Below are positions 20,724 through 59,024 of a stretch of DNA of 64,000 nt, piece after piece. Location: the NCBI RefSeq assembly GCF_004010195.1, contig NC_057746.1:9486142-9550141 (forward strand), given 5' to 3'. Every line of letters starts with the position of its first letter. Positions within the stretch are counted from its first letter, which is position 1. A model generated the notes under the pieces. The model saw nothing but the letters and a program-made list of their open reading frames with translations. It ran no database searches and had not been told where the DNA came from. The translations under genes were made by a program, and so were the position numbers. Source of the stretch: Chiloscyllium plagiosum. Taxonomy: Eukaryota.

Positions 20724-21613
20724 TTATTTCTGTAAATTACTGACAAAATTCAATGGATATTTAAGTAGATTCTTTAACTGCTGTCTGAATTTAGTCTGGG
20801 AAACTGCATAAATAATGGTGTTTGTGCAAGAACTCAAATGTTGCAGCATGTAGCCTGCTTGCTCCATAATGGTGAAAGGATTACTATAATCTGTGTGCAA
20901 GTATTCCACATCCATAATTTGCACACATATGTAGTGAGTAAATGTGACTACCCACAGCAGTATAAAGCTGCCAGATATCGCTAATAGTAAAACAATAGAT
21001 TTCCATCGGTTTTCCATTTCTGGGTCTTTGTCACTGCTCCGGAGTCCCTTCCTGATCCTGCTTGTGAGTAGAATATGCCTGATGGTCAGGCTATTGAATA
21101 TAAGGATCAAGAGAAAGGGAATAAAAGGCATGAATGTGATATCAATCCATAGAAATGTAACCCACAGAGGGACAGTGTACAGACTTAATTTTACATTGCA
21201 GAACCATAATGTATCATCAATTATTACACGCGGTTCAAATGTAAAGTAAATTGGAATGTTTTCCAGGGTGCTGAATACCCATATCATAGTCACAACTACT
21301 GCTGCAGTTTTTGCAGTGCAATATTGTGTTCTTGTTTTTTGACAACAAATGGCAATAAATCTGTCAAAGGTGAAAGCTACAGTCAACCAGACAGAACATT
21401 CAATAGAAGCAAAAATTAGGAAGAAATTCAGACTGCAGACAGGTGTATAGTCCAGGAAGGAATCTGGGAAATAAATTTCATTCATCTCATAAATAACCAC
21501 ATCAAAAATGAGGACTAGTAGATCTGCTGCTGCCATGGATACCAGATAAATTGTGATGCATTTGGAGAGGCCACATTTTCCACGGGAGAGAATCACAATT
21601 GTCACCAAATTGG
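20724..21613 (-). CDS. GPR139/GPR142-like orphan class A GPCR, gene 1, exon 2
   Basis: 294-aa ORF with TM1 end to TM7: MAAADLLVL, CSVWLTVAFTFDRF, FILLW, SSCTNTIIYAVSQTKFR; acceptor ttcttctccacttacag|CC. Confidence 0.92.
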
Positions 21614-23344
21614 CTGTAAGTGGAGAAGAAATGGAATAAATCAGGAGTGTAAATTTGAAAAATTATTTGAGCAAAATAAGCAATAATAATCATTTTTTTC
21701 CATTCACTCATCATTCACAGTCATCCAAAATAAATTTGATAATACAGAGGATGCACATCAGTAAAATATAATTTATTGTCAGTCATTTGAAACAACATTA
21801 ATGAGGTGCTGTGAAATTGGTGCTTAAGTCTCTAATTTGCATTCAAACAACCTTACAGACAAGCAGTGAAGTCAGAGATTTCTTGCAGATTTAATGCATT
21901 GTGACAAATTTTCTCAATGATATTATAAACCACACAAAATAATGATTTGTTCCTCTTAAATCTAACATTTGTACAGCAACAGAGTCACTATTGACACAGA
22001 TGGCGCAATCTATTCATTATTGCTCTACTGCTCAATCTTCCGAAGTTTACAACGTTATTTGCTTCAACTATCTATTCAATCTTTTCTTGAAAACATTAAT
22101 TATTTCTGTTTCCACCTCATCATGAGCATTATCCTTCAGAGAATTACAACTCACTGCCTTAGAAAAGAACTCCTTCATCTCTTGTCTAAAATCCTAAATC
22201 TGTGTCCTTTCGTGCTTATACGATCCACTTATGGGGAGAGTGCTTGCTTGTTTATCTCTTTTCAGTTGATGATCCGAGAACCTTGAAATCACGGTTATGG
22301 TGTGGAATGGCGTCAAATGAGTATGATCACATCTCCTATTTGTCTTCTCATCTTGCAAGTTCCCTCGGAATTATGGCATCCCATCTATGTCATCCCACCT
22401 TATTTCTTCACTCAAAATATATCGAAGAAACGTTTTTTTTACATTGTTCCATACTGACTTATTAAAGGATTCTGATAGCCTGTGCCCTGTTGCAGACAAT
22501 TCGCAGTATTCTTACTGCTTGCAACTCCTACATTTTATAATTGGTGCCACATTTCAAAACTTTCCTCCAGATCGACGATATAAGTCAATGAGACATAGCA
22601 GAAAAGGCTGTGAAGATCAGTATCAATCCGTTTTCTTCCAATCCAACGCTGAACAAGTATGAACTCGGTGATTGATAACGCTCGATGAGGTTCCAGCAAC
22701 AGTATGGACAGGGTTACGAATTTCATCTAGGCACTGGTGAAAATTATTACCAGATGCATCAGTCAATAAACGCTTCTCTAGAAATCTAGCTTAATTTGAG
22801 GTCAAGTTAAATAGACCATCACAGTATTAATGTTTCCTTTTATCTCCTAAGTGAAAGTTACTTTCACGCAGATGACTAATGGGTGAAGTGAATGGGTTCC
22901 TGACATTGTTACGAGACGAACAACCGAGAAGCCCAAGCAAAAATTTGAAGGACATGAGTTTCAATCGCACCATGTCAATTGGTGAAACTTTAATTCTATA
23001 AAAAAGTTACTTTAACCACTGCCCAGTAATTTACGTGATTGACTATTGTCTTTTTCGTTTCCTTACATGATCTGGCATACCGGTAATCTAAAACCCATAG
23101 CAATTTGACTCTTTACTACCCTAAGTTAGCGATGGGGCAACAAATGTTGGCCCACATCAGCAACGTACACGTATAATGAACTAATTGGTTAAAAAGTGGC
23201 ACCACGTCGACTGATGCAATCCATGAAGTTTATCTTCAAAGTTCAAAACTGGGAAGTAACATAACCTTTCGGCAATGATAAAAAAATTGGGGTACACCAT
23301 TGCAATTGTGTATTAAATAGGTGGTGCCATTCTCTTTTCCGAGG

Positions 23345-58116: not shown

Positions 58117-59024
58117 CAAATGCGGTCACATTGCTGACACTCCAACTGAGGGACTGCGGTCTGTCTCGGAGCACTCGAATGTACCTCAAGTCCATGTCCA
58201 CGGCCGATCTGCTGGTCCTCATTTTCTATGTTCTGCTCTACCGTATCCTCCTCCCGCGTTTCCATCATGTCTTTTACTTGTATACCTTCGGGTGCCGTCT
58301 GATTTCAATCCTGATCGCTGCAGTGATTGACTGCTCGGTCTGGCTAACAGTGTCCTTCACCTTCGACCGATTCGTCATCATCTGCTTCCAGCGATTCAGA
58401 AGAACATACTGCTCCATGAAGTGCGCGACGTTGATAATTACAGTGATTTACCTCCTGACCTACTCCAGGAACCTCCCCTATTACTTTGCAATACTACCCA
58501 TCCATGTGCACAATAACATACAGTTTGGCTGTAAGACAAATCCCAACATTGACACATCTCCCGCGTGGCGAGCCTTCTATTGGCTCCACACTATTTTAAC
58601 TCCATTGGTCCCCTACGTTTGCGTGGTTCTGCTCAACCTCCTGACTATTAGGCATGTACTTGTGGCTAGTCAGATCCGGCGGGGATTTCGGGGAAGTGGA
58701 GGAGAAGCGGGAGACCCTGAGATGCAAAGTCGGAGGAGAGCGCTGATGTTACTCTTTGCTGCCTCAGCAAGTTTCATCATCCTTTGGATGGCGACAGTTG
58801 GTCTCTTCCTGTTTTCGCGAATCACGAACACTTACTTTTACCGGGACTTTAATGATCCATTTGCTATTGTCAATGAAACCTCGCGCATGCTTAGGGTTCT
58901 GAACTGCTCTACAAGCACCTGCATGTATGCGCTTACACAAGCAAGATTCAGGGAGGAGCTGAGGAAAGCCATGAAATATTGTGCTAATAGGATTAGTCAG
59001 TTTGTGACGGTGGCAAATGGATAG
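58117..59024 (+). CDS. GPR139/GPR142-like orphan class A GPCR, gene 3, exon 2
   Basis: Acceptor ctcttccctctag|CA; intact 7TM ORF; 325 aa in total, 11 aa different from gene 2 by manual count. Confidence 0.93.

Follow-up and report, generated by a model that had tools for sequence, protein, structure and literature searches.

Three shark receptor genes as candidate members of a ligand-sensing repertoire related to GPR139

Cartilaginous fishes are described as poor in G-protein-coupled receptors (GPCRs) and odorant receptors (ORs) in the available parts of two papers (PMC8455134, PMC11979771), the first of which, on the whale shark, speaks of a paucity of GPCRs in these animals. A locus in the bamboo shark Chiloscyllium plagiosum therefore raises the question of what several intact GPR139-like receptor genes, here called genes 1, 2, and 3, are doing side by side in such a genome. 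The locus lies in a stretch of 64,000 nucleotides (nt) of contig NC_057746.1, referred to as the window, and all coordinates are window positions. An initial annotation of this stretch had proposed that the three genes belong to an overlooked repertoire of ligand sensors. Our analysis suggests that they are members of a clade expanded in cartilaginous fishes, the sister lineage of which is apparently single-copy in amphibians and sturgeon. That the clade forms a ligand-sensing repertoire is well supported. For the more specific reading, that the repertoire is chemosensory and each receptor is tuned to its own external ligand, predicted from sequence to be mostly amines and other cations, we estimate a probability of about 50%.

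Six-frame translation of the window gave three long reading frames with seven transmembrane helices (TM1 to TM7), and a scan for first exons returned one candidate per gene, each of 70 nt and ending one base past a G-x-P motif. Splicing by coordinates joined them across introns of 4380 nt (gene 1), 5832 nt (gene 2), and 2975 nt (gene 3), all three GT-AG, in phase 1, and located in TM1, into intact proteins of 319, 325, and 325 amino acids. In human GPR139, an intron likewise interrupts this TM1 site in phase 1. None of the three genes encodes an N-terminal glycosylation sequon, and the architecture described in the initial annotation was thus reproduced, except that the segment before TM1 is shorter than the 8 to 10 residues counted there: the TM1 helix begins at residue 5 in the AlphaFold model of P0001, the horn-shark orthologue of gene 1. 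All three proteins scored above the cut-off for Pfam 7tm_1 (PF00001), which assigns them to the class A (rhodopsin-like) GPCRs. This was the only match in a Pfam scan at an E value of ≤0.001, with no OR, TAAR, V1R/ORA, or V2R family profile among the results. Genes 1 and 2 were identical at 44 of 79 positions, as claimed earlier, over residues 37 to 115, which is the best 79-residue window among starts 1 to 130; whole-protein identity was 39%. The description as a cluster of three was right for the intact genes, but it overlooked two decayed copies, which make up 2 of the 5 receptor copies in the window.

Database searches placed the genes in a large family. Exon 2 of gene 1 matched 2395 of 4074 candidates at an E value of ≤1e-10, and the 116 named proteins among the best 120 matches listed were all from sharks, rays, or chimaera. 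Exon 2 of gene 2 matched 237 of 2107 candidates; among the best 120 listed, 115 were named and 1 was resolved later, all of them chondrichthyan. The best listed match of gene 1 was horn-shark P0001 (87% identical), and no database entry among the matches listed was closer; orthologue-like matches of gene 2 were found in sharks and rays at 62 to 89% identity. Among 221 listed proteins, the horn shark contributed at least 63 clusters, on 21 contigs and with 30 on one contig (hand count), which is a lower bound from protein listings rather than a genome-wide census. The nearest relatives of genes 1 and 2 apparently lie on one contig in the horn shark, and members of the gene 1 and gene 2 clades apparently do so in the whale shark. 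A family profile built from 71 sequences retrieved 153 clusters at 50% identity with E values of ≤1e-30; of 17 high-scoring clusters looked up, 15 were chondrichthyan and 2 had no assignment. A further search with relatives from outside the cartilaginous fishes yielded 41 matches among 8000 scored candidates, comprising 21 amphibian clusters (each from another genus), 1 sturgeon, 1 lamprey, amphioxus, and chondrichthyan rows, with no amniote copy among the 41. We therefore rejected the statement that the whole lineage is found only in cartilaginous fishes, to which the expansion itself is nevertheless confined.

Members of the family are already in RefSeq under automatic and misleading names, such as "probable G-protein coupled receptor 139," "FMRFamide receptor-like," "sex peptide receptor-like," and "capa receptor-like." The canonical first exon was present in 91 of 221 database models and in none of 7 short-contig proteins checked for a spliced first exon. 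Gene 3 itself is represented by a truncated model (P0121) that starts at Met45 and lacks exon 1. A sequencing-run search with exon 2 and the 3' flank of gene 2 gave no RNA run among the 16 rows listed. In the P0261 cluster and several long matches (P0227, P0237, P0278, and P0301), the models fuse receptor exon 2 to unrelated upstream sequence, one fused model of the P0261 cluster being named a RING-type domain protein; these fusions probably arose because gene prediction missed the 70-nt exon.

We inferred a tree in the quick mode of IQ-TREE (LG+G4) from 66 rows chosen from more than 400 proteins, excluding GPR139 and GPR142, with 8 outgroup receptors as the root. All 44 rows from cartilaginous fishes formed one clade (Shimodaira-Hasegawa approximate likelihood ratio test, 89) with amphibians plus sturgeon as its sister (99). 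Gene 1 grouped with horn-shark P0001, and genes 2 and 3 were joined by orthologues from sharks and rays in one clade (100), which makes the gene 2/3 lineage older than the split between these two groups. The profile, the search counts, and the tree thus bear out the earlier claim of a large multi-copy family with both old and young lineages. Coelacanth and teleost receptors (P0316, P0323, and P0348), which keep R6.51, fell outside the shark-plus-amphibian clade. They are plausibly GPR210A/B, orphans of coelacanth, gar, and teleosts that Rinne et al. placed beside GPR139/142 in 2019 (PMC6504862); the word "shark" is absent from the main text of that paper, and the relevant passage, as far as it is available, mentions no expansion.

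The relationship to GPR139 appears distant. Gene 1 alone matched human GPR139 (E value, 2e-9) no better than a neurotensin receptor (1e-9). Searched against 177,635 PDB sequences, the family profile matched only GPR139 at an E value of ≤1e-15 (79.5 bits), and the same profile gave higher scores to full-length relatives in the tail of its match list from salamanders (242 bits), coelacanth (221), the teleosts silverside (203) and anchovy (143), and amphioxus (145 to 149), as well as to outgroup receptors (125 to 132), GPR142 lying outside this scoring. The nearest Atlas clusters were named probable GPR139 and FMRFamide receptor-like, names that we treat as leads only. Foldseek neighbors of the P0001 model were class A receptors with TM-scores of 0.71 to 0.80, GPR139 standing at rank 11 with the highest identity listed (24%), and neither the best 60 PDB sequence matches nor the best 50 fold matches included an olfactory receptor or a TAAR. 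By their sequences, the genes can be placed in a wider lineage of GPR139/142- and FMRFamide-receptor-like proteins, with GPR139 as the best characterized match. As the closest solved relative by profile, GPR139 (PDB 7vug and 9m42), together with GPR142, shares with the family the TM1 G-x-P-x-N stretch, W6.48, and a non-proline residue at 7.50. In contrast to these receptors, to which structural alignment gives about 24% identity, the family lacks R6.51, E3.32, N7x38, D2.61, and P6.50, keeps the cysteines of TM3 and of the second extracellular loop (ECL2), has a longer ECL2, and is multi-copy.

The ligand-contacting residues show how far the family has moved. The GPR139 pocket is formed by F3x33, H5x43, W6x48, N7x38, R6x51, and E3x32 in the available part of one study (PMC7318219), and R6x51 is, in the available part of another, specific to GPR139/142 and binds the L-Trp or L-Phe carboxyl in docking (PMC8807744). 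Among 224 family sequences, these residues were present in 101 (F3x33), 44 (H5x43), 215 (W6x48), 10 (N7x38), 5 (R6x51), and 1 (E3x32). Gene 1 keeps the phenylalanine and the tryptophan, genes 2 and 3 keep the histidine and the tryptophan, and all three genes have T at 6.51. The idea that descent from amino acid receptors could guide the search for ligands is therefore not upheld by the counts at 6.51, 3.32, and 7x38. C3.25 was found in 216 and the ECL2 cysteine in 217 of the 224 sequences, whereas GPR139 as aligned lacks a cysteine at 3.25. All 32 aligned relatives from amphibians, sturgeon, coelacanth, teleosts, lamprey, and amphioxus have R or K at 6.51, which makes the basic anchor an ancestral feature that the expanded chondrichthyan clade has lost. 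In 28 of the 32, G-x-P occurs at residues 19 to 24 (three of the others lack the first exon, and the lamprey model is extended). The short, sequon-free N-terminus, which had been read as a signature of a repertoire, occurs also in the orthologues from amphibians and in the relatives from coelacanth, teleosts, and amphioxus; it is therefore an ancestral trait and no evidence for a repertoire.

The amphibian and sturgeon sister receptor (Pleurodeles XP_069092602.1, Xenopus tropicalis P0380, and Acipenser P0402) resembles the shark family in having G-x-P at residues 21 to 23, C3.25, and no sequon. Unlike the shark family, it has one cluster per genus and a near-invariant pocket, keeps P6.50-K6.51, and has no acid at 3.37 or 5.42. 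The same orphan (P0307, P0380, P0402, and relatives), apparently single-copy, occurs in frogs, salamanders, a caecilian, and sturgeon; it is labeled "probable GPR139," although it is not GPR139.

Pocket diversification, another part of the original proposal, was confirmed. In a set of 55 sequences below 70% identity, mean entropy was 2.43 bits at 26 canonical pocket positions versus 1.37 bits at 176 other TM positions (0 of 100,000 permutations as extreme), and within the extracellular half the pocket still exceeded 65 other positions (2.43 versus 1.72 bits; P = 3e-4). The relation was reversed in 22 amphibian orthologues (0.04 versus 0.49 bits). In the shark family, mean entropies were 1.0 to 1.4 bits for intracellular and 1.9 to 2.5 bits for extracellular loops. 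Gene 1 and horn-shark P0001 shared 25 of 26 pocket residues, and of 8 orthologues of gene 2 from sharks and rays, 5 had the same 16 pocket residues in TM4 to TM7. In clades that contain paralogues, pocket entropy was 1.03 versus 0.66 bits at other TM positions (12-row clade of gene 2) and 0.67 versus 0.56 bits (7-row clade of gene 1). At the sequence level, the pocket therefore appears hypervariable across paralogues and conserved within orthologue groups. It is also acidic: D or E occupied position 3.37 in 215 of 224 sequences, position 5.42 in 151, and both in 148, and the net pocket charge was negative in 46 of the 55 sequences; in gene 1 it is -4.

Genes 2 and 3 have a history of their own. 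They lie in two units, A and B, offset by about 21 kb, the matching blocks of which were 78 to 88% identical in a self-blastn comparison. Of the 32 coding differences between them, 30 fall within the first 359 nt (synonymous divergence, dS, 0.215; nonsynonymous divergence, dN, 0.047), and the last 618 coding nt contain 2, both synonymous (Fisher P = 9e-12). The units differ at 2 positions of a 999-nt tract that runs from TM4 to the 3' flank. This distribution shows that the pair is old and was later homogenized. The genes had been called recent duplicates, a description that does not fit a tandem duplication whose flanks differ at about 10 to 30 per 100 nt; nor is their reading as diversifying recent births supported, as they differ at 0 of 26 pocket positions. 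The near-identical tract, which may represent gene conversion or an assembly artifact, covers some 380 nt of the 3' flank, all free of mismatches, and is bordered in unit B by an insertion of about 940 nt that holds a LINE-like (long interspersed nuclear element) reverse-transcriptase fragment and a 210-nt N gap. Over codons 1 to 120, the dN/dS ratio was about 0.22, this being the only pair measured. The sole charged change between the two proteins is at residue 48 (position 2.44, inside TM2), which is lysine in gene 3 and methionine in gene 2, and in both S replaces N at 7.49.

On the sequence evidence, the family is a chondrichthyan clade that has lost the P6.50-R/K6.51 pair and combines a conserved intracellular face with a variable pocket and acids at 3.37 and 5.42. 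The most likely history starts from a single jawed-vertebrate receptor for a fixed ligand. In the chondrichthyan line this receptor would have been deprived of the P6.50-R/K6.51 anchor, and its gene copied by tandem and segmental duplication, with every lineage fixing a pocket of its own on the conserved intracellular face. Loss of the basic anchor at 6.51 may have freed the pocket, and D/E5.42 with D3.37 could provide a new salt bridge. In the expanded clade III TAARs of teleosts, amines are anchored by Asp5.42 according to the available part of the study describing them (PMC4695389), and the equivalence of the two positions rests on residue numbering only. Those TAARs offer a functional comparison, being a lineage-specific class A expansion with an acid at 5.42 and without its ancestral anchor (PMC4695389), but they are of aminergic origin and not closely homologous, and only for the TAARs have olfactory expression and amine ligands been demonstrated. 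The shark receptors would report many ligands, mostly cations, all through one shared G protein, and our best guess is that this happens in chemosensory cells of the nose, taste buds, skin, or gut. We favor a chemosensory use because sharks have so few classical receptors: the catshark has 2 OR, 6 OR-like, 3 ORA, 3 TAAR, 2 TARL, and 32 V2R genes in the accessible part of the report (PMC11979771).

Several points weigh against this reading. The same catshark paper, in its available part, treats the V2Rs as the main family of the nose (PMC11979771), and no GPCR appears in its top-50 "brain and olfactory epithelium" list, which counts against the nose specifically. Pocket variability across paralogues indicates divergence in ligands, not the tissue of expression, and the 26 pocket positions were taken from general knowledge and numbered by motifs rather than by model coordinates. 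Genes 2 and 3 have been homogenized rather than diverging, and with H5.42 and a net pocket charge of 0 they do not fit the cation model, which gene 1 does. The P0001 model (pLDDT [predicted local distance difference test] score, 92.5; seven TM helices plus helix 8) has a predicted beta-hairpin in ECL2, and its Foldseek neighbors are peptide receptors. The 2395 matches of gene 1 include proteins from outside the family, as the cut-off also admits receptors from amphibians, amphioxus, and some of the outgroup. With a support of 89, the chondrichthyan clade falls short of the starred level, and the tree is a quick one built without GPR139 and GPR142.

Among the alternatives, the one that survives best, although we consider it rather unlikely, is that leukocytes, mast-like cells, or nociceptors carry the family as an immune or irritant-sensing repertoire, which would stand in for FPRs or MRGPRs in the detection of microbial or cationic peptides. 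Tandem birth and death with pseudogenes and an acidic, variable pocket fit it equally well, the fold resembles that of peptide receptors, and MRGPRs bind cationic ligands. MAS1 and related receptors, moreover, are lacking in cartilaginous fishes according to the available part of the whale-shark genome paper (PMC8455134). However, each orthologue group has kept its pocket across sharks and rays, unlike what an arms race would leave. A weaker point is that no GPR139-named marker is among the markers listed in the available part of a bamboo-shark atlas of spleen, liver, and kidney (PMC11372145), the marker rows of which are genes detected in at least a quarter of a cluster's cells, a threshold at which sparse expression would be missed.

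A largely near-neutral expansion, in which segmental duplication of a small two-exon gene left a few copies with roles for endogenous ligands and most redundant or decaying, appears improbable. The dead copies in the window (2 of 5), the origin of genes 2 and 3 inside a 21-kb duplication with identical pockets, and the presence of the canonical first exon in only 91 of 221 database models, which may mean little transcript support, are what such an expansion would leave behind. Against it stand the dN/dS ratio between genes 2 and 3, the persistence of orthologue groups across sharks and rays at 62 to 89% identity, the uneven variation concentrated in the pocket, and the lower variability of the intracellular loops. 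Finally, that these are orthologues or co-orthologues of GPR139/GPR142 sensing L-Trp and L-Phe in brain or gut is very hard to reconcile with the higher profile scores of amphibian, coelacanth, teleost, amphioxus, and outgroup receptors, the replacement of R6.51 by T in genes 1 to 3, and the nearly universal C3.25 and ECL2 cysteines, even though GPR139 is the only solved structure matched by the profile at its threshold and W6.48, F3.33, the H5x43 of genes 2 and 3, and the non-proline at 7.50 are shared; the earlier denial of one-to-one orthology with GPR139 thus stands.

If the repertoire is chemosensory, a stronger version could be considered, in which it is a fifth vertebrate chemoreceptor family that evolved independently from a GPR139-related gene, forms the largest receptor repertoire of cartilaginous fishes, is expressed as one or a few receptors per cell in the nose or among other chemosensory cells, and binds amines through a convergent acid at 5.42. 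We regard this version as doubtful; if true, it would explain smell in sharks, rays, and chimaeras, which have only about 8 OR and 5 TAAR-type genes. Whatever the tissue, the presence of no fewer than 63 distinct family members in a single shark would revise the picture of cartilaginous fishes as GPCR-poor. The question of shark chemical sensing beyond some 30 V2Rs becomes directly testable, and the apparently single-copy sister gene of Xenopus and axolotl offers a laboratory handle on the ancestral ligand. The expansion is undescribed in the literature searched, a search that had subscription journals and preprint supplements outside its range. The available parts of two reviews (PMC12294341 and PMC12208981) contain nothing relevant to it, and GPR139/142 are not mentioned in 12 of the 24 supplements of the whale-shark paper (PMC8455134).

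The features of the locus are listed in Table 1. The TATA box that the initial annotation had placed close to each ATG is a consensus element in genes 2 and 3, at -56 in both, which are not independent copies; gene 1 has only TATATAG, at -75. TATAWAW motifs have a background density of 0.63 per kb.

Table 1. Receptor genes, remnants, and duplicated segments in the window
Feature	Position	Strand	Description
Gene 1 coding exon 2	20724..21613	-	Rest of TM1 to stop; AG acceptor; Pfam 7tm_1 E value 5.7e-24
Gene 1 coding exon 1	25994..26063	-	70 nt from ATG to a GT donor that follows G-V-P; encodes the N-terminus and the first half of TM1; phase 1
TATA-like TATATAG, non-consensus	26132..26138	-	75 nt upstream of gene 1 ATG
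Tandem duplication unit A	26691..45478	.	Pseudogene 1 and gene 2 head to head; self-blastn
Pseudogene remnant 1	27483..28468	-	Decayed exon 2 with stops and frameshifts; tblastn, blastn to gene 1 exon 2
Consensus TATA	33918..33924	+	56 nt upstream of gene 2 ATG
Gene 2 coding exon 1	33974..34043	+	70 nt
Gene 2 coding exon 2	39876..40783	+	Pfam 7tm_1 E value 1e-14
Near-identical tract, copy in unit A	40165..41163	+	TM4 to 3' flank; pairs with 58406-59404
Tandem duplication unit B	47650..63313	.	Pseudogene 2 and gene 3 head to head; self-blastn
Pseudogene remnant 2	48394..49418	-	86% identical to remnant 1; tblastn, profile, blastn
Consensus TATA	55016..55022	+	56 nt upstream of gene 3 ATG
Gene 3 coding exon 1	55072..55141	+	70 nt; absent from database model P0121
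Gene 3 coding exon 2	58117..59024	+	Pfam 7tm_1 E value 3.6e-15
Near-identical tract, copy in unit B	58406..59404	+	Ends where the ~940-nt unit-B-specific insertion begins

Remnant 1 matched the family profile at 25 bits and contains 3 stops, and a search for exon 1 at both remnants found none. One cyclic AMP response element (CRE) half-site (TGACG/CGTCA) lies within 300 nt upstream of each ATG, at -111, -150, and -138; we rejected these sites as a promoter signal, as there is one per gene, genes 2 and 3 are not independent, and no shuffle test stands behind them. Decayed reverse-transcriptase fragments, which we take to be LINE-like, occur at 9036-10221, 30346-31454, 51383-52535, and 17570-17938, the first three being about 70% alike. 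The observed/expected ratio of CpG steps from 0.25 (positions 1 to 21700) to 0.53 to 0.65 (21701 to 64000) near 21700, at the 3' end of the gene 1 intron, with GC content unchanged at about 41%, and this step may reflect lower germline methylation over the receptor cluster.

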